From Escherichia phage vB_EcoP-101101UKE1: a stretch of 44,450 nucleotides of DNA. A program made the translations under genes and the position numbers. The stretch lies in sequence record MZ234012.1, one strand, 5' to 3'. Below the pieces are notes generated by a model. The model did not search any database and was not told where the DNA came from. It was given only the letters and a program-made list of their open reading frames with translations. Positions 3,940-18,437 of the stretch are shown in pieces (position 1 is the first letter of the stretch; every line of letters starts with the position of its first letter).

Positions 3940-4068
3940 ATGCGTAACTTTGAGAAGATGACCCGTAAAGCTAACCGTTTTGACATGGAAGAAGGGCAGA
4001 AGAAAGGCAAGAAGCTGAATAAACCTGTCCGTGACCGTGCATCTAAACGCGCTGCGTGGGAGTTCTAA
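3940..4068 (+). CDS. T7 gp1.1-like small basic protein (42 aa, MRNFEKMTRKANRFDMEEGQKKGKKLNKPVRDRASKRAAWEF)
   Basis: Short ORF below the six-frame track cutoff. N-terminus MRNFEKMT and overall length and basic character match my recollection of T7 gene 1.1, and it sits directly after the RNAP gene as in T7. Confidence 0.6.
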   Translation: MRNFEKMTRKANRFDMEEGQKKGKKLNKPVRDRASKRAAWEF

Positions 4069-4071
4069 GTT

Positions 4072-6060
4072 ATGGCTATTATTCAGAATGTACCGTGTCC
4101 TGCCTGTCAAAAGAATGGACATGATATTACTGGCAACCATCTTATGATATTTGACGACGGAGCAGGATACTGTAACCGTGGTCACTTCCATGATAACGGT
4201 AAACCTTATTACCACAAGCCAGAGGGTGGCATCGAGATAACCGAATTGCCTATTACTGGCAATATCAAATATACACCTTCTCAATTCAAAGAAATGGAGA
4301 AGGAAGGGAAGATAAGCGACCCTAAGCTACGCGCCATCGCTCTTGGTGGTATGCGTATGAAAGACCGTTGGGAGGTCATGAATGAGCAAGAAAGGGCAGA
4401 CCAAGAAGCAGAGTGGAAACTTGATGTTGAATGGTTCCTCACGCTTAAGCGTAAGAACCTTGTTTCCCGACACATTCGCGGCGACATTTGCGCATTGTAT
4501 GATGTACGTGTTGGGCACGATGAAGAGGGTAGAGTCTCACGGCATTACTATCCGCGCTTCGAAAAAGGTGAGCTAGTAGGCGCTAAATGTCGCACATTAC
4601 CTAAAGATTTTAAGTTTGGTCATTTAGGTAAACTCTTTGGTATGCAAGATCTTTTCGGTATGAATACTTTGTCTCACGTGTTAGACAAGGGAAGACGAAA
4701 GGATTGCTTGCTTATTGTGGGTGGGGAACTGGATGCACTAGCAGCGCAGCAGATGCTCCTTGATTCTGCCAAGGGCACTAAGTGGGAAGGCCAGCCATAC
4801 CATGTATGGTCTGTCAACAAAGGCGAGTCTTGCCTTGAAGAGATAGTGCAGAACCGTGAGCATATCGCCCAATTCAAGAAGATTATATGGGGTTTTGATG
4901 GAGATGAGGTAGGGCAGAAGCAGAATCAGCAAGCGGCTCGCCTGTTTCCTGGCAAATCCTATATCCTTGAATACCCCTCTGGTTGCAAAGATGCTAACAA
5001 GGCATTGATGGCTGGCAAGGCTAAAGAATTTGTAGATGCATGGTTTAATGCCAAGTCATCTGATGAAGTCTTTGGTAGCCAGATTAAATCTATCGCATCT
5101 CAAAGGGATAAGCTCAAGGCTGCACGTCCAGAGCAAGGACTATCATGGCCTTGGCCTAAGCTGAACAAGGTAACGCTAGGTATTCGTAAGAATCAGCTTA
5201 TCATTGTAGGTGCAGGGTCTGGTGTAGGTAAGACTGAGTTCCTTCGTGAAGTAGTTAAGCACCTCATTGAAGAACACGGTGAATCTGTAGGCATCATTTC
5301 TACAGAAGACCCGATGGTCAAGGTGTCCCGTGCTTTTATCGGCAAGTGGATTGATAAGCGTATTGAGTTGCCGCCAACCAACGACCCGAAAGAAGATGGA
5401 TACCGTGAGGTGTTCGACTACACCGAGGAAGAAGCTAACGCCGCCATTGATTATGTAGCTGATACAGGTAAGCTGTTTGTAGCTGACCTAGAGGGTGACT
5501 ATTCGATGGAAAAGGTAGAGCAAACTTGCCTAGAGTTTGAGGCTATGGGTATTTCTAATATCATCATTGATAACTTAACGGGGATTAAATTAGATGAGCG
5601 TGCTTTTGGTGGGAAGGTTGGTGCACTTGATGAATGCGTCAAGCGGATTGGTACTATCAAAGACCGACACCCGGTTACTATATTCCTTGTATCACACCTT
5701 ACACGTCCTCCGGCAAACCGTACCCAACACGAAGAAGGTGGCGAAGTTATCCTTTCTGACTTCCGAGGCTCAGGCGCTATCGGATTCTGGGCATCTTACG
5801 CCTTGGGGATTGAGCGTAATACAAGAGCTGAAACGCTTGACGAAAGGACTACCACGTACATCTCATGTGTCAAAGACCGCGACCAAGGTATCTGGACTGG
5901 AACCAAGGTCATGCTTAAGGGTGACATTCAAACCGGACGTTTAATGGAACCACAAGCCCGTACTAAGTCATTTGACACCGGCGAAGCAAGGCAACAAGAA
6001 GTACCGGATTTACCGGACACTATAGAAGAGACTAACTTCGATGAAGAAAGTGAGTTCTGA
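4072..6060 (+). CDS. DNA primase/helicase (T7 gp4-like), 662 aa
   Basis: N-terminal zinc ribbon CPACQKNGHD...CNRGH, helicase Walker A GAGSGVGKT, and an acidic C-terminal tail ending DEESEF. Confidence 0.92.
   Translation: MAIIQNVPCPACQKNGHDITGNHLMIFDDGAGYCNRGHFHDNGKPYYHKPEGGIEITELPITGNIKYTPSQFKEMEKEGKISDPKLRAIALGGMRMKDRWEVMNEQERADQEAEWKLDVEWFLTLKRKNLVSRHIRGDICALYDVRVGHDEEGRVSRHYYPRFEKGELVGAKCRTLPKDFKFGHLGKLFGMQDLFGMNTLSHVLDKGRRKDCLLIVGGELDALAAQQMLLDSAKGTKWEGQPYHVWSVNKGESCLEEIVQNREHIAQFKKIIWGFDGDEVGQKQNQQAARLFPGKSYILEYPSGCKDANKALMAGKAKEFVDAWFNAKSSDEVFGSQIKSIASQRDKLKAARPEQGLSWPWPKLNKVTLGIRKNQLIIVGAGSGVGKTEFLREVVKHLIEEHGESVGIISTEDPMVKVSRAFIGKWIDKRIELPPTNDPKEDGYREVFDYTEEEANAAIDYVADTGKLFVADLEGDYSMEKVEQTCLEFEAMGISNIIIDNLTGIKLDERAFGGKVGALDECVKRIGTIKDRHPVTIFLVSHLTRPPANRTQHEEGGEVILSDFRGSGAIGFWASYALGIERNTRAETLDERTTTYISCVKDRDQGIWTGTKVMLKGDIQTGRLMEPQARTKSFDTGEARQQEVPDLPDTIEETNFDEESEF
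6008..6030 (+). promoter_or_regulatory. phage RNAP promoter (ATTTACCGGACACTATAGAAGAG)
   Basis: Exact consensus, embedded in the 3' end of the primase/helicase coding sequence. Confidence 0.75.
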
Positions 6061-6081
6061 TTAGTGTACTTATCAGGGCTT

Positions 6082-6097
6082 GTCTCACACGTGAGAC
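6082..6097. promoter_or_regulatory. conserved palindrome GTCTCACACGTGAGAC with extended arms (copy 3 of 6)
   Basis: Lies inside a longer imperfect hairpin gggcttGTCTCACACGTGAGACaggctc followed by ttatt, just after the primase/helicase stop. Confidence 0.6.
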
Positions 6098-6136
6098 AGG
6101 CTCTTATTAAGTACATTAAATAACTGGAGATTGATT

Positions 6137-6820
6137 ATGTATAAATTAGTATTGAATGTAGGTGATTATGTTCGTAACATCAATGTAACCTCACGTAGAT
6201 ATCGTTGCCGTGGTACTGTGACTAATGTAAGTGAAAACAGCTACTATGTAGAGTACAGTAATGGTATTAGACAGGCTTATCAAAAGGAATCAGCACATAA
6301 CTACCTTGAGAAGATTGGAGAGGTAAGCAATCAATGTAAGTGCGTACACGATGAGGTTTGCGATAAGTGTGCCCGCCAGCTGCATAAAATGCTATTATAC
6401 CCTCTTCGCTATGGTGCTGGTGTTCAAACATTAGCAGAGGCATATGGCAAAAGTAAGATCACACTCAAGAAAGAGCGCCGCAATGTAATCACTGGTAAGA
6501 CTCAAAGTGAAATGATTAAACTATGTGGCACTGCATTAGGTGTTACGCAGTTTAATACTCGTTCATTGGGTAAATCCACAGGGCAAGCTATGGTAAAGAT
6601 TGGCGAAGCCATGATGCATCCAAATGTACCTGTACGAATCATGGATGTTGACCATGCAATCACAGAACACGGTACGCAACGACGTGTAATTAATAAGCAT
6701 TTTGCCGACACTATAGAAGGTATTATTCGTAAGCAAGAGTTGAAGGGTCTTCACATCTTAAATGGTGAAGAATTACTGTACCTACCTATCGTTACTGAAG
6801 AAACATACGTGAATATCTAA
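6137..6820 (+). CDS. hypothetical protein (227 aa)
   Basis: ORF with RBS ggaga 6 nt upstream of ATG 6137 (the track's 6131 start is a TTG). No motif recognised. Confidence 0.5.
   Translation: MYKLVLNVGDYVRNINVTSRRYRCRGTVTNVSENSYYVEYSNGIRQAYQKESAHNYLEKIGEVSNQCKCVHDEVCDKCARQLHKMLLYPLRYGAGVQTLAEAYGKSKITLKKERRNVITGKTQSEMIKLCGTALGVTQFNTRSLGKSTGQAMVKIGEAMMHPNVPVRIMDVDHAITEHGTQRRVINKHFADTIEGIIRKQELKGLHILNGEELLYLPIVTEETYVNI
6699..6720 (+). promoter_or_regulatory. possible weak phage promoter (ATTTTGCCGACACTATAGAAGG)
   Basis: Core GACACTATAGAAGG is perfect but the upstream specificity region has 3 mismatches. It lies inside the 6137..6820 ORF. Confidence 0.35.
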
Positions 6821-6830
6821 GGAGTTAATC

Positions 6831-7049
6831 ATGACTAAGGTATTAATTTATATGCGTGGACCTCATAAATGCTATGCAGTTGTAGCACCAAATGGTGTTA
6901 AGCCCTATAGTACTTCAAAAGGATTGGCATTAATAGGTGCTAGTAGTAGTGCAAGTTTCCAAATGGAACTTTTTGGTCATTGGACTGAATGGCAATTCCG
7001 TGAGGATTTTAAAGTCATTGGCAGCTTCATGGTGAAACATGCAGAATAA
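6831..7049 (+). CDS. hypothetical protein (72 aa)
   Basis: Strong RBS taaggag upstream of ATG 6831. Confidence 0.45.
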   Translation: MTKVLIYMRGPHKCYAVVAPNGVKPYSTSKGLALIGASSSASFQMELFGHWTEWQFREDFKVIGSFMVKHAE

Positions 7050-7225
7050 ACATAGTCTTAAAATGTTCGATGGTCATGAAGACCTGCAAGCCAAGATTAC
7101 TAACCAAGCCTTCCTGTTCGCACAGTTAACTATGGCTGAAGCAAAGAAGAATAGCCTGACGCGTGAACAGGTTATCAAGGAAAGTGAAGTGAAACGTAAG
7201 ATTCGCAGTCGATAAGTCAAGGGTT

Positions 7226-7241
7226 GTCTCACACGTGAGAC
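7226..7241. promoter_or_regulatory. conserved palindrome GTCTCACACGTGAGAC with extended arms (copy 4 of 6)
   Basis: aagggttGTCTCACACGTGAGACagccttt forms a roughly 12-bp imperfect stem followed by a T-rich stretch. Confidence 0.6.
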
Positions 7242-7272
7242 AGCCTTTCATCATATTGATTGGAGGTGCATT

Positions 7273-7380
7273 ATGCCACGTGATTATGATTCTGATTGGG
7301 ATTTCCAAGATTCAATGAATCCAAAACCAGAACGTTCAGATGATTACTACGAAACAGAGGCAATGTATGAAGACTATTAA
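7273..7380 (+). CDS. small acidic protein (35 aa, MPRDYDSDWDFQDSMNPKPERSDDYYETEAMYEDY)
   Basis: Strong RBS ggaggtg before ATG 7273. Below the ORF-track size cutoff. Confidence 0.35.
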   Translation: MPRDYDSDWDFQDSMNPKPERSDDYYETEAMYEDY

Positions 7381-7585
7381 ATTAAGCAAGGTTTGCTCTT
7401 GCGGTAAAGGTTATCGCAGTCGTATTGATGGTAAGTGTGGGCATTGCAGGTCTAAGAAAGAGGCTGCTTTGTTTGATAAGTACCACAATGAATTAGCATA
7501 TAACTATCCTCATCTAACACCTAATTCTTTATTAGGACTTGGTTATAGGGTTAAATACTTTGGAGCAATCTATGAAATCAATTGA
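7367..7585 (+). CDS. small zinc-ribbon protein (CxxC...CxxC)
   Basis: Internal start MKTIKLSKVCSCGKGYRSRIDGKCGHCRSKK with RBS agagg. Its 3' end overlaps the DNA polymerase start. Confidence 0.4.
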   Translation: MKTIKLSKVCSCGKGYRSRIDGKCGHCRSKKEAALFDKYHNELAYNYPHLTPNSLLGLGYRVKYFGAIYEIN

Positions 7586-10118
7586 TTGGAAGAAGGAGGC
7601 AGAAGGTCGTATCCTCGTGATGGATGCGGAAGCTAAAGGACTCCTTGACGCTATCCGATATGGACACCGTGAAGATGTGCATATCATTTGCTGCATGGAT
7701 TTGCTTACTACCGAGGAGTTTCTCTTCTTTGACCCGTATGAGATGCGTGACCCTGAAGCAAGAGAACGCCTGAAGGAATGGGAAGGTCATCAAGACGGAA
7801 CCTTGGTTGATGGTGTTAACTTCCTGAAGCATTGTGAAGCTATTGTGTCACAGAACTTACTAGGGTATGACGGACTTCTCTTTGAGAAAGCATTCCCTGA
7901 TATTTGGAAGGGCTTTAACTATACCGAGAAGCGCGGTAAGGGCAGACTCCGTGCTGACCTGTGTCCGGTGCGAGTCATGGATACGCTGGTGATGAGTCGC
8001 CTGTTAAACCCCGATAGACGCCTTCCTCCGCAAGCATATGCCAAAGGTATGGGTAACGTCGCCCCTCACTCAATTGAGGCGCACGGCATCCGTATAGGCC
8101 GCTATAAACCGGAGAACGAGGACTGGTCTAAACTAACTGACCACATGGTTCACCGTGTACGTGAGGACGTGGCGATTGGTCGTGACTTGTTCCTCTGGCT
8201 CTTTAACGGGGAATGGATGGAGCACAAACGCCGTGGCGTGAATAAACGCACTGGCCTAGGTATTGAGACAGCCTTCCACATGGAGTCCATTGTGGCGCTG
8301 GAGATGAGCCGTCAGGCAGAGCGTGGATTCCGTCTGGATATTGACAAAGCACTAGCGCGATGCGAAGAACTGGACGCTAAGATTGACGAGACAGTCGCAG
8401 CGTTCCGCCCTCACATGCCTATGCGTATCAAGTCTAAGCCTTTTAAACCGGAAGAAAAGAATGAAGTATGCCAACGCGCAAATGAGTATGGAGCTAGCAA
8501 CAATATACCTACTGTCCTTGACCCCTCACACTTTCTTCATGCCGAGAGACGAGGAGATCGCAAGACAGTATGGAGTGTCACTACTAAGTCTGGTGATTGG
8601 TCGGCTAGTGTCAAGAAAGACTTTCCTCACCTTAGAGGAAACCGTAATGACACGCCAAGCATCAAGTGGATTGGCGCTTACTCGCCTGTTACTTTCGAAG
8701 AGATTCCCTTGGGTAACAGGGATACAGTTAAGCAAGTGCTCTATGATTATGGATGGAAAGGTGTTGAATTTAACGATACCGAGCAAGCGCATCTCGATGA
8801 GCACGGAGTGTTACCCAAACCTTGGAGTGGTAAGATAAATGAAAAGTCCCTTACTTTATGGCAAGAGAGAGCCGCACGTGAAGGTAAAACAGTCCCTGAT
8901 TGGTGCTTGGGTATCGCTGCATGGTACATACTCGTATCCCGTCGTGGTCAGATACTCAACCGTGGTGACGTTGAAGCCTTCAACGAGAAGGGAACGTGGC
9001 CCTCGCAGGCTGGTGTACGAAAGTGTCGCGGCCTTGTACCTGTAGCATTCAACAAGGAGCTAGGAATCAATGCGCAGCAATACTACGAGAGGTACGGATG
9101 TTGGCCTACGTCTGACAAAGATGATGGAGAGTGGCGTGTTCCAGCTGTTGCTATTAGCATTGGCACTTCTACGTTCCGTATGCGTCATCGTAACGTGGTC
9201 AATATTCCTGCCCGTGGCTTGTATCCTTTACGTGATTTATTCATAGCAGGGAAAGGCAAGCTAATCCTTGGTTGTGACGGTGCAGGTCTTGAACTGCGTG
9301 TCCTGTCTCACTTCATGAATGACCCTGAGTACCAAGAGATTGTACTGCACGGTGATATTCATACGCATAACCAGATGAAGGCTGGTCTTCCTAAGCGTGA
9401 TATGGCGAAGACGTTTATATACGCCTTCCTCTATGGCTCTGGTATAGCCAACCTTGCAGCAGTATGTGGTGTTACTGAGGAAGAAATGAAGGAAGTTGTG
9501 GCAAGATTCGAGATTGAACTGCCGTCTCTTGCACGTCTTCGTGAGAATGTTATCGCACAAGGTAACAAGTTTGGCTACCTGCAAGCACCTGATGGGCATT
9601 GGGGTCGCATCCGCATGTCTGGTGGTGAACTTAAAGAGCACACGATGCTTAACGTATTACTCCAGATGACTGGCTCTTTGTGTATGAAATATGCATTAGT
9701 CAAGGCATTTGCAGTAATGCGCAAGGAAGGTGTAGCCTTGGATGCTATGGGAAATCCTTGTGGTGTGGCTAACGTGCATGATGAAATCCAGATGGAAGTT
9801 CCTGAAGAGGAGGTCTTGTATCTTAACTACGACCTACCTTTCACCTTAGATGGGTTCGAAACAGAGAAGGCTGCCGTGAAGGCAGTGTTCGATGCAGAGG
9901 AGAAACGTGTTCATGTGGATTCTGAAGGACGTATGTGGTCTGCTGCAAACCTCGTTAGTGTTGATGCTGATGCTGGTGTATTGCATTGCCAGCGCCGTTA
10001 TCACCGTGCAGGTCATATCATTGCCGACGCCATGACTTGGGCAGGGCAGTATCTGAAGATGCGTTGCCCGATGGCAGGCGAATATAAGATTGGCGCAAGT
10101 TGGAAGGAAACACACTGA
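7572..10118 (+). CDS. family A DNA polymerase with 3'-5' exonuclease domain (T7 gp5-like)
   Basis: Exo I motif ILVMDAEAKG, pol motif A DGAGLELRVLSHF, motif B KTFIYAFLYG and motif C VHDEIQ. Start chosen at ATG 7572 (RBS tggag); the track ORF opens at 7539. Confidence 0.92.
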   Translation: MKSIDWKKEAEGRILVMDAEAKGLLDAIRYGHREDVHIICCMDLLTTEEFLFFDPYEMRDPEARERLKEWEGHQDGTLVDGVNFLKHCEAIVSQNLLGYDGLLFEKAFPDIWKGFNYTEKRGKGRLRADLCPVRVMDTLVMSRLLNPDRRLPPQAYAKGMGNVAPHSIEAHGIRIGRYKPENEDWSKLTDHMVHRVREDVAIGRDLFLWLFNGEWMEHKRRGVNKRTGLGIETAFHMESIVALEMSRQAERGFRLDIDKALARCEELDAKIDETVAAFRPHMPMRIKSKPFKPEEKNEVCQRANEYGASNNIPTVLDPSHFLHAERRGDRKTVWSVTTKSGDWSASVKKDFPHLRGNRNDTPSIKWIGAYSPVTFEEIPLGNRDTVKQVLYDYGWKGVEFNDTEQAHLDEHGVLPKPWSGKINEKSLTLWQERAAREGKTVPDWCLGIAAWYILVSRRGQILNRGDVEAFNEKGTWPSQAGVRKCRGLVPVAFNKELGINAQQYYERYGCWPTSDKDDGEWRVPAVAISIGTSTFRMRHRNVVNIPARGLYPLRDLFIAGKGKLILGCDGAGLELRVLSHFMNDPEYQEIVLHGDIHTHNQMKAGLPKRDMAKTFIYAFLYGSGIANLAAVCGVTEEEMKEVVARFEIELPSLARLRENVIAQGNKFGYLQAPDGHWGRIRMSGGELKEHTMLNVLLQMTGSLCMKYALVKAFAVMRKEGVALDAMGNPCGVANVHDEIQMEVPEEEVLYLNYDLPFTLDGFETEKAAVKAVFDAEEKRVHVDSEGRMWSAANLVSVDADAGVLHCQRRYHRAGHIIADAMTWAGQYLKMRCPMAGEYKIGASWKETH

Positions 10119-10234
10119 TGGATAGGCTTGACATTGTTTACCTATTCTTCACTTTCTTTCTTACACTCCTTATGCTTGCTTGTTATGGGAGTATGAGACT
10201 AGATATATCTGATGAAGAAGAGGGTTACGACTAA
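10118..10234 (+). CDS. small hydrophobic peptide (38 aa, MDRLDIVYLFFTFFLTLLMLACYGSMRLDISDEEEGYD)
   Basis: ATG overlaps the polymerase stop (TGATG). One predicted transmembrane helix plus an acidic C-terminus. Confidence 0.3.
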   Translation: MDRLDIVYLFFTFFLTLLMLACYGSMRLDISDEEEGYD

Positions 10235-10332
10235 TGCAAACTGCTTTTATTATTCTTGGTATCATATTATTTATGGTAGTATTCTGGGCTTTCTCTGGCA
10301 TTGACCCAGATTGTGATGGTAACTACGACTGA
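10234..10332 (+). CDS. small hydrophobic peptide (32 aa, MQTAFIILGIILFMVVFWAFSGIDPDCDGNYD)
   Basis: TAATG-coupled to the preceding peptide, with the same architecture (TM helix plus acidic tail ending YD). Confidence 0.3.
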   Translation: MQTAFIILGIILFMVVFWAFSGIDPDCDGNYD

Positions 10333-10391
10333 GTTATACTCAAGGTCACTTACGAGTGGCCTTTATGAATAACTTAACTGGAGGAAATATA

Positions 10392-10949
10392 ATGAATGAA
10401 CTGAACACTAAGATGCTCAAGAAAGTTTATAATCTTGTATATAGTATCACGGGCCTACACTTCTACCCTGTAGGCGGTGCGGTTCGTGACACCCTGTACG
10501 GATTAACACCTAAAGACTATGATATGGTGTTGCCTGTAGGGTCTATGGCAGATTCTCAGGCGCACGAAATCATGGAAAATATCTCTGAAGAGATGGCAAT
10601 TATGGGATTTAGTACCAAACTCTACCAATCATACGGTATCAATTTAGGTTATGAAATCAACCCTACCTCTTTTCAGGCTATGTTCCTTAGCTGCATGAAA
10701 GTGCAGATGCGTAATTGCCAACTTGATTTGCTTCTTTCTAAGGCTGAAACCATCCAAGATCATGTACGTAAGCACGATTGCAATATGAATATGGTGTGGT
10801 TCGATGGTAAAGATATCAAGTGGGAGCACGGCGGTGTTACTCCTTTCGTTCCTGTGTTAGAGTTCAACCCTGACGGATGTGATCGTCGCATTGCTTACAT
10901 GGACAAGAAGCGCCATGAACTTATCCGTCACAAATTAATGCATCTTTGA
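10392..10949 (+). CDS. minimal Pol-beta-superfamily nucleotidyltransferase with CCA-adding-enzyme/poly(A)-polymerase head motif
   Basis: Motif VGGAVRDTLYGLTPKDYDMV (GGxVRD followed by DxD) matches the class II CCA-adding enzyme head signature. RBS ggagga 7 nt before ATG 10392. Protein is only ~185 aa. Confidence 0.6.
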   Translation: MNELNTKMLKKVYNLVYSITGLHFYPVGGAVRDTLYGLTPKDYDMVLPVGSMADSQAHEIMENISEEMAIMGFSTKLYQSYGINLGYEINPTSFQAMFLSCMKVQMRNCQLDLLLSKAETIQDHVRKHDCNMNMVWFDGKDIKWEHGGVTPFVPVLEFNPDGCDRRIAYMDKKRHELIRHKLMHL

Positions 10950-10970
10950 TTTACCGGACACTATAGAAGG
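10949..10970 (+). promoter_or_regulatory. phage RNAP promoter (ATTTACCGGACACTATAGAAGG)
   Basis: Consensus match. Confidence 0.75.
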
Positions 10971-11035
10971 AAGTCCTAGGTAATCTAGGTTTATAAGGTA
11001 GTATAGGTAATTAAGTAAATATAGGAGATATAAAC

Positions 11036-11413
11036 ATGTCTATGGTAACTACTCTGGTATTTGTAGCTCAATACTTTCGTGGTCTGGCTAATAAGTTCAA
11101 GTCCAAGGCTATCAAAGCTATTGAGTCTCGCATCGAGGCAGTACAGGCAGAGCAAGTTAAAGTTGAAGAACATCGTAGTTCTCAAATGATTGACTGCCAT
11201 AACCGCTACTATGCATCTCGTGATGACCTTAATGCACGCCAAGTCAAAGAGGTTGAAGAGATGCTGGCACGTCACCAGCAAGAGCGCGACAGCCTGAAAG
11301 CTGAATTTGAAGAGAACAAGGCATCCATCGCCCTTGTACATCAAGCCGCATCTGACAACCTGAAGAAAGAGATTGTTATGCTGGAAATTGAGTTAGACAA
11401 CCTGACCAAATAA
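11036..11413 (+). CDS. hypothetical membrane-anchored coiled-coil protein (125 aa)
   Basis: RBS aggag. N-terminal hydrophobic segment MSMVTTLVFVAQYF followed by heptad-like charged sequence. Confidence 0.45.
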   Translation: MSMVTTLVFVAQYFRGLANKFKSKAIKAIESRIEAVQAEQVKVEEHRSSQMIDCHNRYYASRDDLNARQVKEVEEMLARHQQERDSLKAEFEENKASIALVHQAASDNLKKEIVMLEIELDNLTK

Positions 11414-11434
11414 TTACTGGACACTATAGAACAA
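11412..11434 (+). promoter_or_regulatory. phage RNAP promoter (AATTACTGGACACTATAGAACAA)
   Basis: Consensus match. Confidence 0.7.
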
Positions 11435-11490
11435 TAGGTCGGCTTAGTTCGGCCTATGATTGTGTAGTGTAACAATAGGAGACTAAATAA

Positions 11491-12297
11491 ATGGCACGTG
11501 GTGATTTTGATTTTGGTGCTCAGGTTACTAAAGCTGAAGGTAAGGTTTTTAAGAACCCTGAAGTTGGTGATCATGAAGCAGTAATCTCTGGCATCATTCA
11601 TGTGGGTTCCTTCCAAGATATCTTTAAGAAAGGTAATACCACTGAAGTTAAGAAGCCAGCAAACTTTGTTCTTGTTAAGATTGTACTGATGGGTGACGAT
11701 GACAAGAACGAAGATGATTCTCGCATGGAACAGTGGATGGCTGTGCCTCTGAAGTCTGGTGACAAGGCAACCTTGACTAAGTTCCTGAATGCAGTTGACC
11801 CTAAAGAGCTGCTTGGTGGTTTCGATGACTTCATCGGTGAATGCCTGACTGCAACTATGGTTGGCTCTGGCGACAAGAATGATGATGGTACTTTCAAGTA
11901 TGTTAACTGGAAAGGCTTTGGCGGTATGCCTGATAAGTTGAAGAAGCTTGTACTGGCTCAGGTAGAAGAGGAAGGTCTGTCTATGACAGGTCATATCACC
12001 TTCGACAAGCTGACCAAAGAAATCCTTGATGACATTCCTGCTAACTTGGTGCGTCAATACTTCCTTAATGAAACACCTCGTGGTAAGAACCTGTCTGTTG
12101 CTGGTTCTCACGTAGAAGCAATCATTAAAGCTGCTCGTGAAGAAGACCCAGAGTGGAAGAAAGCCAAGAAGAAAGATGACGAGGATGCTACTCCAGCTAA
12201 TCGTAAGTCTCTGGATACTGGCGAGTCTGTTCCACAGGAAGTACCTGAAGCAGAAGATACTCCTGCACCGGAGATGGATGAGGACGCGGAATATTAA
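11491..12297 (+). CDS. putative single-stranded DNA-binding protein (gp2.5-like), 268 aa
   Basis: Own promoter, strong RBS aggag, highly biased codon usage, and an acidic C-terminal tail ending DEDAEY (T7 gp2.5 has an acidic tail ending in F). The assignment is tentative. Confidence 0.45.
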   Translation: MARGDFDFGAQVTKAEGKVFKNPEVGDHEAVISGIIHVGSFQDIFKKGNTTEVKKPANFVLVKIVLMGDDDKNEDDSRMEQWMAVPLKSGDKATLTKFLNAVDPKELLGGFDDFIGECLTATMVGSGDKNDDGTFKYVNWKGFGGMPDKLKKLVLAQVEEEGLSMTGHITFDKLTKEILDDIPANLVRQYFLNETPRGKNLSVAGSHVEAIIKAAREEDPEWKKAKKKDDEDATPANRKSLDTGESVPQEVPEAEDTPAPEMDEDAEY

Positions 12298-12306
12298 GGA
12301 GAAAGG

Positions 12307-12525
12307 ATGAAAGTACAAATCGTAACTCTGCACTGCAAGAAAGGTATCACAACGCTCGGAGGTAGCACTTTCCACTCTTTCTCCGAAGGGGAGATTTATG
12401 CTGACCTGCACTACATCTGGCGCGACGGACAGCACGTGGTGAACTACAGCGACCCCGCTACGGGGAAGCGCCACGGCGTATCGCTTCCGGCGCATGACAT
12501 TGCTCAGGTGAACACAGTTTTATAA
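12307..12525 (+). CDS. hypothetical protein (72 aa)
   Basis: Strong RBS taaggagaaagg before ATG 12307. Confidence 0.4.
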   Translation: MKVQIVTLHCKKGITTLGGSTFHSFSEGEIYADLHYIWRDGQHVVNYSDPATGKRHGVSLPAHDIAQVNTVL

Positions 12526-12526
12526 A

Positions 12527-12542
12527 GTCTCACGTGTGAGAC
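12527..12542. promoter_or_regulatory. conserved palindrome GTCTCACGTGTGAGAC (copy 5 of 6)
   Basis: Immediately after the stop of 12307..12525 and 15 nt upstream of the promoter at 12558. Confidence 0.6.
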
Positions 12543-12557
12543 AAATCGGTGTCCGGT

Positions 12558-12580
12558 ATTTACTGGACACTATAGAAGAG
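12558..12580 (+). promoter_or_regulatory. phage RNAP promoter (ATTTACTGGACACTATAGAAGAG)
   Basis: Exact consensus. Confidence 0.8.
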
Positions 12581-12629
12581 AAGAATTTTAATCGGCGATA
12601 ATGCCACAACTAACAAAGGAGAATTTAAT

Positions 12630-13010
12630 ATGTTCAAGATTGAAACTATCGTAAACCGTGTTGTTAAAGGTGCTGCTCTGGTATCCGTTGAGTCTTTCAT
12701 TATCGTCGATGAAGCTGATCAACTGGTAGCTGGTACTAAGGCTTACGATACCCGTGAAGAAGCTCAGGCTAAGATTGACAGCATGGGTAACTTCGCTGCT
12801 GGTCTGGAGTTCGCTCGCGCTTGCTTCCCTGAGCAGGCTGACAAAGCTCAGATTGGTAAGGCTAATATCGTAGCTGAATATCTGGATTGGATTGCTGCTG
12901 GTAAGCCGGTGAAAGAAGTTAAGTCTGCTGAAGAAGCTGAATCTCAGGCAGTAGAAGAAGAAGTAGCTGCACCGGTAGATGCTCCGGTAAGCGAAGAGGA
13001 AGAGTTTTAA
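12630..13010 (+). CDS. abundant acidic protein (126 aa) with C-terminal acidic tail ending SEEEEF
   Basis: Strong RBS aaaggag, own promoter, codon usage like the capsid gene, and a terminator directly downstream. Confidence 0.5.
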   Translation: MFKIETIVNRVVKGAALVSVESFIIVDEADQLVAGTKAYDTREEAQAKIDSMGNFAAGLEFARACFPEQADKAQIGKANIVAEYLDWIAAGKPVKEVKSAEEAESQAVEEEVAAPVDAPVSEEEEF

Positions 13011-13012
13011 TT

Positions 13013-13047
13013 GATGCCCTGTCTGCCTTAGTGTAGGCAGGGTCTTT
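13013..13047 (+). terminator. putative rho-independent terminator
   Basis: Imperfect hairpin gccctgtctgcc...ggcagggtc followed by ttttg. Confidence 0.45.
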
Positions 13048-13074
13048 TGCGTAATAGTTATTGGAGAATGAATT

Positions 13075-13380
13075 ATGCCGACTATTAAATCTCGTTTAGT
13101 AGCAGACTATGTGTATGGTCGTGACTTAAAGTTAATGCAAGATTACTTTAAAGTAATCATCCTGCTGGATGGAGAAGTGTTTCACACTAAAACATTCACC
13201 CTTCCTGAATTGTTTGATTTAGGTTATTGGGGTTATACATATCAGGCCATAGCAGACAAGGTGCTACTCAGTGTATTAGAGGAGTGGCCTACATGCGACC
13301 AAACTTCGACTTCGGAGCTACAGTATCGGAAGACAATAACCTGTTGCTGTGGCCAACTGAAGGTAATAGAATCGCTTTAA
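13075..13380 (+). CDS. hypothetical protein (101 aa), 3' end overlapping the exonuclease gene
   Basis: RBS ggaga before ATG 13075. Overlaps the exonuclease gene out of frame. Confidence 0.3.
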   Translation: MPTIKSRLVADYVYGRDLKLMQDYFKVIILLDGEVFHTKTFTLPELFDLGYWGYTYQAIADKVLLSVLEEWPTCDQTSTSELQYRKTITCCCGQLKVIESL

Positions 13381-14321
13381 TAGATGCTGACATGTTACCC
13401 TACATCGTAGGTTATACAATCAGTGACATGACTTATGTACGAGCCACAACTCGTGTTAAGTCAGGACAAGTCCCATCAATCAAAGATACACCTGAGTGTA
13501 AGCAAGCGTGTGACCGTGTGAACTCCTTGCTCAACTCTTGGGTGTATGCAGCAGAGTGTGATGCAGCTAAGTTATTCATGACGAAATCAGAAGCTAACTT
13601 CCGTGTTCGCCTAGCCTTCACCAAGCCTTATAAGGGTCAACGTAAGACCGAGAAGCCTCCGTTCTTCTATGAATTGCGAGAGCATCTCTTAGAGGTTCAT
13701 GGTGCAATCTTGGCAGATGGAGAAGAGGCTGATGACCTCATGAGCATTGCACAATGGGACAGCCACCGCCGCTTCCAGCAAGATACAGGTAACGAGTTCC
13801 CTATCGGTAGTCCAGAGCATAAAGCATTCTCTGATACTTGCATCGTTTCCTTAGATAAGGATTTGATGATTGTTCCCGGTTGGCATCTTCAGCCGGGTCA
13901 AGAGAAGAAATGGGTAGAGCCTATGGGTTGGCTTGAGCTACGCCGTAAGGCTAATGGTCAGGTTAAAGACCTTAAAGGTGCTGGCCTCATGTTTCATTAT
14001 GCACAGATGATTATCGGTGATGATATTGATAACTATGCTGGCATACCTGGACGTGGTGCTAAATACGCCTATGATCTTCTCAAAGATTGTAAGACAGAGA
14101 AAGAGTTGTACATGGCAGTGCTTGGTGCTTACAAGGCTAAGTTCGGACATGGACAAGTTAAGATTAAGAATTACCGAGGTGGTTATCGTATCGGCAAGTC
14201 TTTTGACCTGATGCTCGAATGTGGTCGCCTAGCTCACATGGCAAGATTCAAAGGTGATATATGGCGAGCCGATAAGAACCCAATCTTGTGGGGAGATGAT
14301 GCGAAATGGTTAGCAAATTAA
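13293..14321 (+). CDS. 5'-3' exonuclease (T7 gp6-like, FEN family)
   Basis: Motifs IVSLDKDL and GDDIDNYAGIPGRG resemble T7 gp6 CDKDF and GDITDGYSGIAGWG. Start at ATG 13293 with RBS gaggagtgg; the track ORF opens at 13227. Confidence 0.85.
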   Translation: MRPNFDFGATVSEDNNLLLWPTEGNRIALIDADMLPYIVGYTISDMTYVRATTRVKSGQVPSIKDTPECKQACDRVNSLLNSWVYAAECDAAKLFMTKSEANFRVRLAFTKPYKGQRKTEKPPFFYELREHLLEVHGAILADGEEADDLMSIAQWDSHRRFQQDTGNEFPIGSPEHKAFSDTCIVSLDKDLMIVPGWHLQPGQEKKWVEPMGWLELRRKANGQVKDLKGAGLMFHYAQMIIGDDIDNYAGIPGRGAKYAYDLLKDCKTEKELYMAVLGAYKAKFGHGQVKIKNYRGGYRIGKSFDLMLECGRLAHMARFKGDIWRADKNPILWGDDAKWLAN

Positions 14322-14716
14322 AATCATCGGAGGTAGCAGCTTATAAGAGGGAATTGCTAGAGAAGCAAGGGTGGAAGTGCCCACTATGTGGCGGCAGTCT
14401 CAAGGCTGTTACTCCTATAAACCGTGTACTTGACCATGACCATGAGACAGGATTCTGCCGTGCTGTTGTATGCCGAGGCTGCAATGGTGCAGAAGGAAAG
14501 ATTAAGGGTGTTATCTCTGGTTACGGTAAGGCTGGTAACAACCGTTACTTCCAGCTTCAATGGTTAGAGCGACTATATGAATACTGGAAGTTACATAGTA
14601 CGCCTCAGACAGATAAGTTATATCACAAACATCAAACGGAGGCAGAGAAGCGCGAGGCTAAGAACCGTAAGGCACGCCTTGCTTATGCAAGAAAGAAGGA
14701 GGTTAAAGTTGGGTAA
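14306..14716 (+). CDS. endonuclease VII-like Holliday junction resolvase
   Basis: Zinc-binding signature CPLCGG...LDHDHETGFCRAVVCRGCNGAEGK, typical of the T4 endonuclease VII family. Confidence 0.8.
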   Translation: MVSKLKSSEVAAYKRELLEKQGWKCPLCGGSLKAVTPINRVLDHDHETGFCRAVVCRGCNGAEGKIKGVISGYGKAGNNRYFQLQWLERLYEYWKLHSTPQTDKLYHKHQTEAEKREAKNRKARLAYARKKEVKVG

Positions 14717-15716
14717 GCTTCGCAGCTTGTACAAAGACTCCGAGGTACTTGATGCAATCGAGCAAGCTACCGACGAGAAAGGTAATGTTAATTATAATGA
14801 GATGGCACGTGTATTATCGTGTCACCCTGTGGGTAAGAAGATTACCCGCCAGTTGGCTCGATACTGGCATGGTCAATTCAAGAAGACCAAGAAGAAAGGT
14901 GATTATTACCAGACCCTTCTGCAAGAAGATAAGCGTATCAAAGAAGAGCGTAAGCTCAGGACTCCTGACCGCTACGAGGATTTGGCTATTGTACCATTGC
15001 CTGACTCGCCTCATCGAAGTGTACTGGTAATCCCTGATACTCATGCACCTTATGAGCATCCAGATACCTTAGAGTTCCTTGCAGCAGTCGCGGCACGTTA
15101 CCGTCCAGATACAGTGGTTCACTTAGGAGATGAGGCAGATAAACACGCCCTCTCCTTCCATGACTCTGACCCTAATCTGGATAGTGCTGGCATGGAGCTA
15201 GAGAAGGCTCGTGTCTTCATGCACAAGTTGCACAAGATGTTCCCTGTGATGCGCCTGTGTCATTCTAATCACGGCTCTATGCACTTCCGTAAGGCAAGCG
15301 CCAAGGGTATTCCAGTGCAATATCTTCGCACCTACCGTGAAGTCTTTTTCCCAAATGGAGGTGGCGACCAGTGGGATTGGCAGCATACACATGTTCTTGA
15401 GTTGCCGAATGGTGAACAAGTGGCATTCAAGCATCAACCTGCTGGCTCTGTCCTAGCAGATGCAGCGCATGAGCGTATGAACCTTGTGTGTGGTCACTTG
15501 CACGGTAAGATGTCTGTGGAGTACGCACGTAATACACATGAACAGTATTGGGCTGTGCAAGGTGGCTGCTTAATTGATGAGTCATCCCGTGCATTTGCCT
15601 ATGGTCGTGAGTCTAAATACAAGCCAGCATTAGGTTGTGTGGTCATTCTGGAGGGTGTGCCTCACATTGTCCCGATGCAAACCAATAGCGACAACCGTTG
15701 GATTGGCAAGATTTAG
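14709..15716 (+). CDS. calcineurin-like metallophosphoesterase with ~100-aa N-terminal extension
   Basis: Phosphoesterase motifs IPDTHAPYEHPD (DxH), HLGDEAD (GD), HSNHG (NH) and CGHLHG (GHxH). Probable TTG start at 14709 after RBS aaggagg; the track ORF opens at 14577. Confidence 0.75.
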   Translation: MGKLRSLYKDSEVLDAIEQATDEKGNVNYNEMARVLSCHPVGKKITRQLARYWHGQFKKTKKKGDYYQTLLQEDKRIKEERKLRTPDRYEDLAIVPLPDSPHRSVLVIPDTHAPYEHPDTLEFLAAVAARYRPDTVVHLGDEADKHALSFHDSDPNLDSAGMELEKARVFMHKLHKMFPVMRLCHSNHGSMHFRKASAKGIPVQYLRTYREVFFPNGGGDQWDWQHTHVLELPNGEQVAFKHQPAGSVLADAAHERMNLVCGHLHGKMSVEYARNTHEQYWAVQGGCLIDESSRAFAYGRESKYKPALGCVVILEGVPHIVPMQTNSDNRWIGKI

Positions 15717-15734
15717 TTGACACTATAGAACAAA
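15711..15734 (+). promoter_or_regulatory. phage RNAP promoter (ATTTAGTTGACACTATAGAACAAA)
   Basis: One mismatch from the SP6 promoter core ATTTAGGTGACACTATAGAA. Overlaps the phosphoesterase stop codon. Confidence 0.75.
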
Positions 15735-15816
15735 GGGTTAGGTAAGACTTTATCGGCTGGCGTATCCAAATGATATTGCACTAGCCCTTGATTGTATAGT
15801 GAATGGAGGATTCAAT

Positions 15817-16320
15817 ATGTCACACTATGAATGTAAGAAGTGTCATAAGCGTTATGATTACTGTACTTGTGGTCAAGAGAAAACATCTTTTAAAGTTGGA
15901 GACAAGGTATTTCGTAATGAAAAAGATTCGATTCCTTGGAATCAATACTGCAAAGAAGCTGGTATTGACCCTGATAACCCTGTAACCATAGATGATATTG
16001 ATGGCATTAACTTGTGCTTTCGTGAGGTGAGAGGTACAGGTTGGGATTCCAAAAAATTCAAACTTGCATCTGATAAGTTAGACAACAATATGGTAACTCA
16101 GCCTAAGCACTACGAGTTCTTTGATGGTGTAGAGGCAATCACTATCATTGCCCGCAGTATGACTGAAAAGCAATTCGCTGGGTACTGCATGGGTAATGCC
16201 CTTAAGTATCGCCTGCGTGCAGGTAAGAAGTTCAATACTGAAGAAGACTTGAAGAAGGCAGACTATTATAAAGAGTTATTCCAGAAGCATCGTCACGAAT
16301 GTATTGATGAGGATATTTAA
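15817..16320 (+). CDS. conserved phage protein with N-terminal zinc ribbon (possibly DUF3310-like)
   Basis: CxxC...CxCG ribbon YECKKCHKRYDYCTCG, then PKHY...GNALKYRLRAGKK. RBS ggagga 6 nt before ATG 15817. Confidence 0.5.
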   Translation: MSHYECKKCHKRYDYCTCGQEKTSFKVGDKVFRNEKDSIPWNQYCKEAGIDPDNPVTIDDIDGINLCFREVRGTGWDSKKFKLASDKLDNNMVTQPKHYEFFDGVEAITIIARSMTEKQFAGYCMGNALKYRLRAGKKFNTEEDLKKADYYKELFQKHRHECIDEDI

Positions 16321-16321
16321 T

Positions 16322-16495
16322 ATGGAAGGTAAACTGTATAGAGGGTGCTTCGGTAACTTATATAAAGTAAGCCCTCGCGGTTTTGTATTGACCTCTGATG
16401 ATGAAGGTGCAATGTGGCACCTAAGTGCATATGGTTCTAACTTAGCATACTTTAAAGAGGCAATAGTCAAAGGTGTGATGAAGGAGGTGAAATGA
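16322..16495 (+). CDS. hypothetical small protein (57 aa)
   Basis: RBS gagga. Its stop overlaps the ligase start (ATGA). Confidence 0.3.
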   Translation: MEGKLYRGCFGNLYKVSPRGFVLTSDDEGAMWHLSAYGSNLAYFKEAIVKGVMKEVK

Positions 16496-17439
16496 ACATC
16501 TTCCAATTCCTAGGTCTTCCAGAAGACCACCGCAATCATCCATTCATGCTGGTGAAGCATCGCGGTGAAGTTCCTGAGAAGAAACTTACTTTTCCATGTT
16601 ATGCACAGGTGAAACGAGATGGAATATTCAGTGCTGTTGTGGTGCGCAATGATGGTGCTGTTGCCATCTTTGGTCGTACTGGTAAGAAGCTCGCAAATGT
16701 TGAATCCTTGGAAAAGACGTTTAGTGTATTTCCTGTCGGGTTGTATCTTGGTGAGTTGCAATCTATGGCTGTTGATGTTTATCTTGAAGCTCTGTCAGGA
16801 GTGGTAAACCCTAATCGTACAGAGCCACTTGACTTCATAGGCCAGCAGATTAAAGACAACCTGTATATCGACTTCTTCGATATGTTAACTATTAAGGCAT
16901 TCCATGATGGATTCACTGATGTTTCTTATCTCAAACGTTACGATGCTTTACATCGTCGTATCGGCACTCATCTTAGCGGGTGCAACGCTATCCTTCCTAT
17001 CACTCCTTGCCATAATGAGCGAGAAGTTGAAGCGTTTGCGCAAGAGCAAATAGATGCAGGACGTGAGGGTGCTGTATTCAAACTGGACTGCGATTATGAA
17101 GCAGGACACAAAGGTTATCGTCAGACTAAAGAAGTCCGTAAGGTAACTTATGACCTTACTTGTATTGGCTTTGAAGAAGGTAAAGGTAAATACAAAGGTA
17201 AGGTAGCTAACCTCATTTTCAAGTGGAAAGGGGGCAAGACAATCAAAGCTATGCTCGGTAAAGGGTGGACTCATGCAGATGCAGAACAGATGTTCCACGA
17301 TATTAAACATGGCGGACGGTTGAATGTCATTGGTAAAATCTTTGAAGTCAAAGGTCTTCAGGATTCAAGCAAGGGCAACATTCGTCTGCCCAAAGCGGGA
17401 GAATTAAGACATGACAAAGATGAACCAGATTTCTTTTGA
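16492..17439 (+). CDS. ATP-dependent DNA ligase
   Basis: Adenylation motif QVKRDGIF (KxDG), size 315 aa, and position after the exonuclease/endonuclease block. Confidence 0.85.
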   Translation: MNIFQFLGLPEDHRNHPFMLVKHRGEVPEKKLTFPCYAQVKRDGIFSAVVVRNDGAVAIFGRTGKKLANVESLEKTFSVFPVGLYLGELQSMAVDVYLEALSGVVNPNRTEPLDFIGQQIKDNLYIDFFDMLTIKAFHDGFTDVSYLKRYDALHRRIGTHLSGCNAILPITPCHNEREVEAFAQEQIDAGREGAVFKLDCDYEAGHKGYRQTKEVRKVTYDLTCIGFEEGKGKYKGKVANLIFKWKGGKTIKAMLGKGWTHADAEQMFHDIKHGGRLNVIGKIFEVKGLQDSSKGNIRLPKAGELRHDKDEPDFF

Positions 17440-17626: not shown

Positions 17627-17764
17627 AGGAATGGAGATGCTTGAGATGATTCTCAAGCCTTCTTCTCCGAAGGTGACTAAGACTCATGAAGAGTTAATCG
17701 TTGATGAAGTGAAGCGTTACATCATGGATTGTGTCAGAGCACAACTGGTGGTCCAATGATACGT

Positions 17765-18217: not shown

Positions 18218-18226
18218 GGAGACAAC

Positions 18227-18436: not shown

Positions 18437-18437
18437 T

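Follow-up and report, generated by a model that had tools for sequence, protein, structure and literature searches.

Acidic C-terminal tips with an aromatic end on three replication-module proteins of a K1-5/SP6-like phage, and a possible third client of a T7-type tail-docking hub

In phage T7, gp4 and gp2.5 carry acidic C-terminal tails that dock on the gp5 DNA polymerase, an organizing principle of the replisome that is usually portrayed with two clients, helicase and SSB, competing for the polymerase. The locus described here raises the question of whether such a hub can have a third client. The window, a stretch of 44,450 nucleotides from Escherichia phage vB_EcoP-101101UKE1 (MZ234012.1), is that of a Vectrevirus (K1-5/SP6-like; 99.9% identity to phage vB-Eco-KMB47) and covers the replication module of an SP6/K1-5-type phage. 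We screened the ≈54 nonoverlapping plus-strand ORFs of the window for C-termini in which acidic residues outnumber basic ones by at least four in the last 10 positions and the terminal residue is Phe, Tyr, or Trp. Exactly three ORFs pass, all of them within the replication module: the primase-helicase (662 aa, ...ETNFDEESEF), a 268-aa protein (...EMDEDAEY), and a 126-aa protein (...VSEEEEF). These are the very ORFs and termini that a first-pass annotation of this DNA had claimed, and the screen returns them alone (Table 1). With a looser filter, 14 related loci yield only ≈4 ORFs that belong to none of the three families. A 71-aa ORF ending in EEETDDFI was considered as a further carrier and rejected, as its relatives end in DEDSE and do not keep the aromatic residue. 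A 44-aa membrane ORF, likewise considered, ends in EEEGYD, as does the single close relative found. The ORF at 43600..43968 ends in EEEEE, an acidic end that lacks a terminal aromatic.

Table 1. Features of the replication module and their coordinates in the window
Feature	Position (nt)	Strand	Basis or remark
gp4-type DNA primase/helicase, 662 aa	4072..6060	+	DnaB_C; phrog_239; BLASTP vs T7 gp4
Primase-helicase C-terminal tail, roughly residues 646-662	6007..6057	+	ends TNFDEESEF
Family A DNA polymerase, presumed tail receptor	7539..10118 (ATG at 7572 probably the real start)	+	profile matches; MAFFT alignment
118-aa polymerase insertion, 19 K+R	8382..8735	+	at the place of the T7 thioredoxin-binding domain
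Lineage-specific basic loop of the polymerase, GHWGRIRMSGGELKEH	9594..9641	+	just past the position of the T7 front basic patch
Consensus phage promoter TTACTGGACACTATAGAA	11414..11431	+	upstream of the SSB gene
268-aa OB-fold protein, probable phage SSB (PHROG 862)	11491..12297	+	predicted fold
268-aa protein, confident core (residues 19-227) and disordered linker (residues 228-258)	12172..12264 (linker)	+	
268-aa protein, tip P-E-M-D-E-D-A-E-Y	12265..12294	+	
Consensus phage promoter GTATTTACTGGACACTATAGAAG	12556..12578	+	51 nt upstream of the 126-aa ORF
126-aa protein (SP6 gp20 family, PHROG 4429)	12630..13010	+	phrog_4429 profile match
126-aa protein, folded alpha/beta core (residues 1-96) and acidic low-confidence linker (residues 97-118)			
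126-aa protein, tip P-V-S-E-E-E-E-F	12984..13007	+	
Terminator-like hairpin with T-run	13016..13050	+	directly after the 126-aa ORF

The primase/helicase call holds: the protein is a true homolog of T7 gp4 (25% identity, E = 3e-29 over 459 aa in BLASTP), with a Pfam match to DnaB_C (1.4e-14), a weak one to Toprim_2 (E = 3.2e-4; 21.4 bits against a cut-off of 22.1 bits), and a match to phrog_239 that covers residues 2-645 (3.5e-188). Its last ≈17 residues form the acidic tail ...PDTIEETNFDEESEF, in which the terminal Phe of T7 is kept, and an acidic tail with an aromatic is present at every related locus that has an intact helicase ORF. The likeness to T7 gp4 extends to a second aromatic residue at position −7 (NFDEESEF here and DWSNDTDF in T7).

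The 268-aa protein is likely the phage SSB, an assignment that comes from structure modeling. The model is a five-stranded OB barrel with a helix between strands 3 and 4, and the nearest solved structures are ssDNA binders, among them the noncanonical OB-fold proteins PrgE (plasmid pCF10), baculovirus LEF-3, and RPA70, to which identity is low (7-15%) and from which the 268-aa protein differs by a further, helical subdomain at the C-terminal end (residues 148-227) and by an FDFG motif conserved at the N-terminus, part of the family signature MARxFDFGA. The layout of core, disordered acidic linker, and acidic tip is SSB-like. The tip, with the profile P-[DE]-[ML]-D-E-x-x-E-[YF], is kept in 44 of 47 clusters, and the terminal aromatic in 43 of 43 distinct tails, with linkers drifting. 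The earlier suggestion of a putative SSB is thus supported by the ssDNA-binding type of OB fold together with the disordered linker and acidic tip; homology to T7 gp2.5 is not detectable in sequence. Searches of Pfam, NCBIfam, and PDB sequences gave no significant match; the sole near match (residues 20-106 to NF046043, E = 9e-4) falls far under the cut-off. PHROGs names no second SSB candidate in the replication module. None of the SSB-gene records of the SP6/K1-5 group examined names an SSB, PHROG 862 is listed as “unknown function,” and we found nothing specific in the literature on the SSB of SP6-group phages.

The third protein belongs to the family of SP6 gp20, which occupies the same locus; phrog_4429 covers it in full length (residues 1-126, E = 2.3e-56). 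The family records, among the 40 of 215 matches listed, read hypothetical, gp20, unknown function, or carry no annotated feature, and our search of the literature on gp20 of the SP6 group found nothing specific. Pfam, NCBIfam, and PDB sequence searches returned nothing significant for the protein, and the predicted core has no convincing structural neighbor and no fold similarity to DNA-binding domains. This core is net acidic (11 K+R versus 15 D+E, pI 4.8) and conserves few near-invariant polar residues, namely K37, K72, K77, and N79. Three possible relationships were rejected by hhalign, which finds no relation to T7 gp5.5 (syntenic and abundant), to the 268-aa family (of which the protein might have been a duplicate minus the OB fold), or to DUF1508/YegP (UPF0339), a database label carried by one relative (P0192) for which neither the Pfam model nor the YegP sequence or fold gave a match.

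The tip of this family, P-[VL]-S-E-E-E-E-F as a position-specific profile, ends in EEEF in 120 of 120 close relatives, among which it stays invariant while the linker varies in length and sequence across the family; some 15 of 20 distant representatives (30-74% identity) end in acidic-x-F, and the terminal aromatic is kept in 63 of 67 distinct tails. The tip is missing in some distant members (...KEEERKAKLAA in L029, ...DAEEA in L030, and P0182, P0184, and P0187, the most distant of these, P0182-P0187, being from contigs of 0.5-1.3 kb). These tip-less homologs show that the core has a role independent of the tip and that the 126-aa protein is not simply a tail decoy.

All three tail genes occur in the same order in 22 related phage loci, in each of which the 126-aa homolog lies between the SSB and exonuclease genes, and the order helicase-polymerase-SSB-126-aa gene-exonuclease holds in Molineuxvirinae and Colwellvirinae. 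Judged from the tails of relatives, conservation of the tips goes far beyond chance, and they have a common format, hydrophobic(−7)-x-four or five mostly acidic residues-aromatic-COOH, on a disordered acidic segment. This format shifts in step among the proteins of a given phage, a co-variation that comes from few independent lineages (≈2 or 3 events). Helicase, SSB, and 126-aa protein all end in EY in L014-16 and all in EF in L008/9 and L027. In a Pseudomonas-phage clade (L007, L010-13), the SSB runs one to two residues past the aromatic (EQEFGE, EEVFE, EQTFD), the 126-aa protein is likewise extended (EESFEG, EETFE, EESFS), and in L012/13 the helicase too has residues past the aromatic; in L029, helicase (EEDFG) and SSB (DEDFS) are both extended. 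A point against is the window's own clade, where Tyr closes the SSB tail and Phe the tails of the helicase and 126-aa protein. The claim that a third protein carries the same type of tail is strengthened, its tip being strongly conserved and changing format with the SSB tip from lineage to lineage. We consider it probable that the three tips are functional and share one class of partner.

The 126-aa gene shares its expression signals with the major capsid gene. Its promoter is identical over 23 nt to the one 50 nt upstream of the capsid gene, and the hairpin that follows it, the strongest terminator-like site in 4000..23000, nearly copies the hairpin after the capsid gene (22195..22221), these being the two best terminators of the region. 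The same promoter, a strong ribosome-binding site, and a terminator hairpin accompany both genes in every lineage examined, and directly after the 126-aa homolog, 22 of 22 related phage loci have, as the window does, a hairpin of −18 to −25 kcal/mol. The adjacent SSB and 126-aa genes each have a perfect consensus promoter. Capsid-like signals imply that the product is probably made in very large, stoichiometric amounts; “abundant,” a guess in the first-pass annotation, is therefore matched by the signals and is a prediction from them. The terminator could, however, serve mainly to attenuate the downstream nuclease genes.

The presumed receptor was compared in a MAFFT alignment of the window polymerase, eight relatives, and T7 gp5 (27.6% identity between the window polymerase and gp5). 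The front basic patch of T7 gp5 consists of K587, K589, R590, and R591, of which only one aligns with a basic residue in the window polymerase. The 14-residue T7 insertion that bears the patch is absent, so that the T7 sequence KWKRRW aligns with KFGY, and the T7 docking site is thus not transferable by homology. Just after the patch position is a different basic loop, GRIRMSGGELKEH, which reads GRIRRSGKKIKVH in others. At the location of the T7 thioredoxin-binding domain is the 118-aa insertion of the polymerase, the sequence of which does not resemble that domain.

We favor, at a probability of roughly 0.45, a reading by analogy in which the 126-aa protein would be a third, abundant client of a T7-type tail-docking hub with a putative phage partner; that this partner is the phage polymerase or replisome is a tentative assignment. 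The helicase and SSB tips would be the counterparts of the T7 gp4 and gp2.5 tails, most likely tethering their two proteins to the phage DNA polymerase as in T7, and, by the same precedent, the SSB tail probably also folds back onto its own DNA-binding cleft. The 126-aa protein, encoded by a self-contained promoter/ribosome-binding site/terminator unit that copies the signals of the capsid gene, would present the same tip from its alpha/beta core on a flexible acidic linker and plug it into the same docking site(s) as the SSB and helicase tips, thereby becoming a third client of the replisome hub. Its tip might deliver the core domain to the fork, or the protein might, by mass action, tune the time for which the helicase and SSB tails occupy the polymerase, with polymerase loading, polymerase exchange, or SSB displacement as the outcome. 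A point against this reading is that a competitor as plentiful as capsid protein might be expected to poison the replisome if its tail were not masked.

The resemblance to T7 lies in the homologous helicase and in a layout of folded domain, disordered acidic segment, and terminal aromatic on the helicase and SSB of an Autographiviridae replisome. The differences are an SSB that is not detectably homologous to gp2.5, a polymerase without the front basic patch insertion and with a longer, unrelated insertion where the thioredoxin-binding domain lies in T7, and a third tail-bearing protein that has no T7 equivalent: in the T7 record, gp4 ends in ...SNDTDF and gp2.5 in ...EDGDF, and no third tail of this kind occurs among the proteins of that region. 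Bacterial SSB (...DFDDDIPF in E. coli) shares the disordered linker, acidic tip, terminal aromatic, and hydrophobic residue ≈7 from the end, and its single tip format serves several partners, as is proposed here. It differs in that one SSB serves many clients, whereas here several proteins carry the tip, and the tips of the 126-aa protein and phage SSB are E-rich and lack I-P-F.

The tail of the 126-aa protein might instead act in cis or on the phage SSB, as a DNA-mimicking lid over a basic surface, be it the conserved lysines of the protein itself or the cleft of the OB fold in the 268-aa SSB. On this view, the protein would be a factor that binds nucleic acid or regulates the SSB, and the tails would resemble one another through a shared logic of acidic tail versus DNA and not through a shared polymerase site. 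The T7 gp2.5 tail sets a precedent, since it binds the DNA-binding cleft of gp2.5 itself in competition with ssDNA and modulates ssDNA binding, and its removal raises ssDNA affinity in simulations; the near-invariant K37, K72, K77, and N79 on an otherwise acidic core, the neighboring SSB and 126-aa genes with their perfect promoters, and an activity of the core itself, as the tail-less homologs show, fit as well. We nevertheless think such a lid unlikely, given that a net acidic core is unusual in a DNA binder, that it lacks fold similarity to DNA-binding domains, and that so strict a need for an aromatic at the free C-terminus, or next to it, typifies pocket docking in trans.

Docking in trans could also be directed at the host, with the 126-aa protein a decoy made in bulk that imitates the tip of bacterial SSB, quoted as DDDIPF (PMC5872125). 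Exonuclease I, RecQ, PriA, RecO, the chi subunit of Pol III, or DnaG would be its targets, and host repair or replication would be shut down or those host proteins recruited. The tip logic of acidic residues, terminal aromatic, and hydrophobic residue at −7 is that of bacterial SSB, very high predicted expression would suit a titrating inhibitor, and the gene position matches that of the host-directed T7 genes 5.5-5.9. The bacterial SSB tip is, however, nearly invariant, whereas the 126-aa tip changes its format from lineage to lineage together with the SSB and helicase tips of the same phage, an argument for a phage-encoded partner; the tip lacks the I-P-F signature, tail-less family members exist, and the literature searched describes no phage-encoded non-SSB mimic of the bacterial SSB tip. 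Such a decoy is, in our judgment, very unlikely. We give still less credence to the idea that the tails are alike by convergence or composition and serve unrelated roles such as solubility or protease resistance. In its favor, the 71-aa ORF and the ORF at 43600..43968 do have acidic ends with no conserved aromatic, and the aromatic is missing from some relatives of the 126-aa protein; against this stand its retention in both families of tails despite linker drift, the confinement of the tip to replication-module proteins, and the co-varying formats. The boldest reading, in which the SP6 gp20 family is either a new class of abundant tail-sharing replisome regulator that competes for the polymerase docking site or a bulk decoy for host SSB-docking proteins, is quite unlikely.

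Helicase and SSB tails of this kind are known from T7; the SP6/K1-5 phage group appears to have a third client that is conserved and probably very abundant, and an SSB candidate is now supplied for these phages. Among them are many candidates for therapeutic use against E. coli K1, Salmonella, Klebsiella, Erwinia, and Vibrio. If the gp20 family is indeed a tail-sharing regulator or a host decoy, it would be the first non-SSB, non-helicase protein shown to have such a tip as its working end, and as a regulator it would set the balance of helicase-bound, SSB-bound, and free polymerase. If the 126-aa protein binds the hub, these phages would offer a natural experiment on tail competition in polymerase loading, polymerase exchange, and SSB displacement, and a gene present in more than 200 sequenced phages would gain a function.

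Three proteins of the replication module, the primase-helicase (...NFDEESEF), a 268-aa protein (...EMDEDAEY), and a 126-aa protein (...VSEEEEF), carry an acidic C-terminal tail capped by an aromatic residue, and these C-termini are exactly as the first-pass annotation gave them. We screened ~54 non-overlapping plus-strand ORFs of the window for a net charge no higher than −4 over the last ten residues and a terminal Phe, Tyr, or Trp, and only these three proteins pass; the ligase (...HDKDEPDFF), a 71-aa ORF (...EEETDDFI), and a 44-aa membrane ORF (...DEEEGYD) narrowly fail. Outside the three families, ~4 ORFs in 14 related loci pass a looser filter. In the T7 record, gp4 ends in ...WSNDTDF and gp2.5 in ...ADEDGDF, and such a tail is absent from all 23 other proteins of the corresponding region. 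The three-tail observation is real, and a compositional accident is excluded. A D-[FY] C-terminus lies just 5–6 residues past motif VI (RxDK) in 17 of 21 ligases (the window and its relatives L003–L019 and L026–L029), and the ligase end may be a minimal fourth aromatic tip of the module or merely a structural residue. Both the 71-aa and the 44-aa ORF end acidic, with an aromatic in penultimate position; relatives of the former terminate in EEETDY or DEDSE, so that the aromatic is not conserved.

Over 11400..13100, the sequence shares 99.9% identity with Escherichia phage vB-Eco-KMB47 and 96–99% with many Vectrevirus genomes, and the window is affiliated with Vectrevirus (K1-5/K1E/SP6-like Autographiviridae, Molineuxvirinae). 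The plus strand carries every gene, and the module runs from RNA polymerase through primase-helicase, DNA polymerase, the 268-aa ORF, a 72-aa ORF, the 126-aa ORF, exonuclease, and endonuclease VII to ligase. The 42-aa basic ORF is similar to T7 gp1.1 (...GRKLNKTKRDRSHKRSWEGQ) and occupies the same place, directly 3' of the RNA polymerase gene. Between the polymerase gene and the 125-aa ORF lies a nucleotidyltransferase (poly(A) polymerase/CCA-adding head domain), an accessory gene covered to at least 80% in only 8 of 86 matching phage records and missing at the corresponding position of phage LL11 (L001). The name "polysaccharide chain length determinant protein" that the 125-aa ORF has inherited (PHROG 7450, RefSeq) is probably an annotation artefact, as the ORF resembles a plain coiled coil within the replication module. 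HNH endonuclease genes are found upstream of the helicase and polymerase genes in LL11 and are absent from the window (4068..4072 and 7215..7539); in phage phiEa100 (L019), the polymerase gene is in two parts, with HNH genes annotated beside the helicase gene and after the second part, and homing endonucleases appear to move through the module. A distant SP6-like contig, L029, harbors a ThyX (Thy1) thymidylate synthase and a DUF1289 gene between its polymerase and SSB genes (8979..9653).

Genes and expression signals of the window, in order of position
Feature	Position	Strand	Remark
42-aa basic ORF	3940..4068	+	ends ...KKLNKPVRDRASKRAAWEF
Primase-helicase	4072..6060	+	
DNA polymerase	7539..10118	+	
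44-aa ORF	10100..10234	+	predicted membrane protein
197-aa nucleotidyltransferase	10356..10949	+	Pfam PF01743, E 8.6e-5; phrog_1614
125-aa ORF	11036..11413	+	
Promoter core, SSB gene	11418		
268-aa ORF	11491..12297	+	
N-terminal motif of 268-aa protein	11491..11520	+	
Promoter core, 126-aa gene	12564		
126-aa ORF	12630..13010	+	
Hairpin 3' of 126-aa gene	13016..13043		
Promoter-like site	15717		
Ligase	16492..17439	+	ends ...RHDKDEPDFF
71-aa ORF	17411..17626	+	
Promoter core, major capsid gene	20920		
Hairpin 3' of capsid gene	22195..22221		

The 268-aa protein belongs to PHROG 862, a family annotated as function unknown, and has no match in Pfam, NCBIfam, or PDB sequences. An AlphaFold2 model built on a 29-sequence alignment has a confident core at residues 19–227 (block means mostly 80–94), whose strands and helices are ordered as in an OB barrel with a helical subdomain after it; a disordered stretch (residues 228–258) and then the tip come next. 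A perfect consensus phage promoter precedes the gene. No other ORF of the module is named as an SSB by PHROGs; several of these ORFs fall, like the 268-aa and 126-aa proteins themselves, in function-unknown families. The 268-aa protein is likely to be the phage SSB as first annotated, on the strength of its modelled fold and architecture but not as a relative of T7 gp2.5, to which it has no profile similarity. Its N-terminal motif, M-A-R-x-F-D-F-G-A, is near-invariant down to 33% identity yet modelled as disordered (pLDDT ~38); by analogy with the N-terminal domain of T4 gp32, it may mediate self-association or cooperativity.

The 126-aa protein corresponds to SP6 gp20 (PHROG 4429) and is found by tblastn in 215 phage records, each an SP6-like genome of ~38–48 kb, with no function given among the 40 records listed of these 215. 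The AlphaFold2 model (mean pLDDT 84.8) consists of a β-hairpin (residues 3–26), three helices (42–51, 55–65, and 71–89), and a low-confidence acidic segment (97–126). The core is net acidic (pI 4.8), with K37, K72, K77, N79, and W87 among its near-invariant residues. No convincing structural relative of the folded core (residues 1–96) was found. Kinship with T7 gp5.5 or with the 268-aa protein was considered and ruled out, no relation being found in either case.

Every one of the 120 close homologues listed for the 126-aa protein terminates in EEEF, and the ~25-residue segment that precedes this tip differs in length and sequence. Only 24 relatives were found among 1.84 billion representatives (59–149 aa, 32–89% identity), and 15 of the 20 full-length members (~108–149 aa) end in [DE]-x-F or in Phe plus one residue. 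In 44 of the 47 SSB clusters, which extend down to 33% identity, the protein likewise ends in Tyr, Phe, or Phe-then-Ser. Aligned on the aromatic, the SSB gives the profile P-[DE]-[ML]-D-E-x-x-E-[YF] and the 126-aa family P-[VL]-S-E-E-E-E-F; the two share one register, with the aromatic at the end and a hydrophobic residue at −7 (100% and 71%, respectively). The helicase tails are acidic with Phe or Tyr last and, as in T7 gp4, often a second aromatic upstream.

We assembled 22 related loci from IMG/VR contigs and GenBank phages of Escherichia, Proteus, Klebsiella, Pantoea, Erwinia, Pseudomonas syringae, Vibrio, and Marinomonas, covering Molineuxvirinae and Colwellvirinae, with proteins 28–86% identical to their window counterparts. 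Gene order is identical and all three proteins bear the tail in 22 of 22 loci. Tip formats co-vary across lineages: every member of the Pseudomonas-phage clade has one to two residues beyond the aromatic in both SSB and 126-aa protein, an extension that also reaches the helicase in two loci, and the distant L029 has an extended format common to helicase and SSB. This co-variation points to a common phage-encoded reader of the tips, and is suggestive rather than statistical proof because few independent events are involved.

C-terminal tip formats in related phage loci
Loci	Helicase	SSB	126-aa protein
L014–L016	EY	EY	EY
L008, L009, L027	EF	EF	EF
L007, L010, L011 (Pseudomonas-phage clade)	EEAKY, EKETY, EEKQY (terminal Y, no extension)	EQEFGE	EESFEG, EETFE
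L012, L013 (Pseudomonas-phage clade)	ETFD, KTFE	EEVFE, EQTFD	EEAFEG, EESFS
L029 (separate distant lineage)	EEDFG	DEDFS	no tip

The 126-aa homologues of L029 (97 aa, ...KEEERKAKLAA, E 8e-23 to the family profile) and of a second distant lineage, L030 (89 aa, ...DAEEA), lack the tip despite SSB and helicase tails of the usual type, and three distant representatives of the family lack it as well. From these tip-less homologues we infer that the core has a function of its own and that the tip was added in the Molineuxvirinae/Colwellvirinae branch, making a pure decoy less likely and a recruited adaptor more so.

The first-pass annotation had called the 126-aa protein abundant, which promoter, terminator, and ribosome-binding signals back, although the level itself is only predicted. 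Seven mismatch-free copies of the promoter consensus core TGGACACTATAGAA occur in the window, three of them upstream of the SSB, 126-aa, and major capsid genes. The 126-aa and capsid genes have a 23-nt promoter in common, at 51 and 50 nt from the ATG, and are directly followed by the two strongest terminator-like hairpins of 4000..23000, which are near copies of one another. Such sharing between the 126-aa homologue and the capsid gene recurs in other lineages, as nearly identical hairpins (L017), an identical 23-nt promoter and ribosome-binding site (phiEa100), or a common 24-mer that matches the published phiA318 promoter consensus (L008). [quoted passage not shown] Given these shared signals, the 126-aa gene is predicted to be a self-contained high-expression unit. 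Downstream of its terminator are the exonuclease, endonuclease VII, and phosphoesterase genes, for which the next promoter-like site is at 15717, and the terminator may also attenuate these nuclease genes.

In T7, the tails compete at a docking site on the polymerase and are important in polymerase loading, exchange, processivity, and SSB displacement (PMC12339929; bioRxiv 10.64898/2026.05.20.726333). Since the window helicase and polymerase are homologues of gp4 and gp5 (27.6% identity for the latter), transfer of this docking principle by analogy is reasonable. Mutations in the T7 polymerase are known to suppress loss of the terminal Phe of gp2.5. The T7 site itself cannot be transferred because the insertion that bears the front basic patch is missing from the window polymerase, where KFGY aligns with KWKRRW. 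In SP6-group polymerases, a basic insertion of six residues of their own lies just downstream of the patch position (GRIRMSGGELKEH in the window, GRIRRSGKKIKVH in Pseudomonas phages), and these enzymes also have a 118-aa thumb insertion with 19 Lys and Arg at the position of the T7 thioredoxin-binding domain and unrelated to it in sequence. With the T7 site not carried over, the receptor on the polymerase is putative, and the basic loop and the thumb insertion are no more than candidates for it. The earlier interpretation of a polymerase-docking replisome factor is partly supported: helicase homology and tip conservation agree with it, and the T7 patch is not conserved in the window polymerase.

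We favor the 126-aa protein as a third client of the docking site that the SSB and helicase tips would use, since its tip is conserved like that of the SSB, keeps the same register, and follows the unusual SSB formats. Its probable abundance suggests a stoichiometric role, in which it would compete for or buffer docking sites or deliver its core in mass to replicating DNA; a catalytic role is less likely. As a less likely reading, the tail would be a DNA mimic that acts in cis or on the SSB. The protein might also imitate the bacterial SSB tip to act on the host, in agreement with its probable abundance but at odds with the lineage-specific co-variation of the tips. That the three tails lack any shared partner is unlikely because the tips are conserved.

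The tail-docking principle is known already from T7. New here are a third protein with such a tail, conserved, uncharacterised, and probably very abundant, and a fold-level SSB assignment for the SP6/K1-5 phage group.
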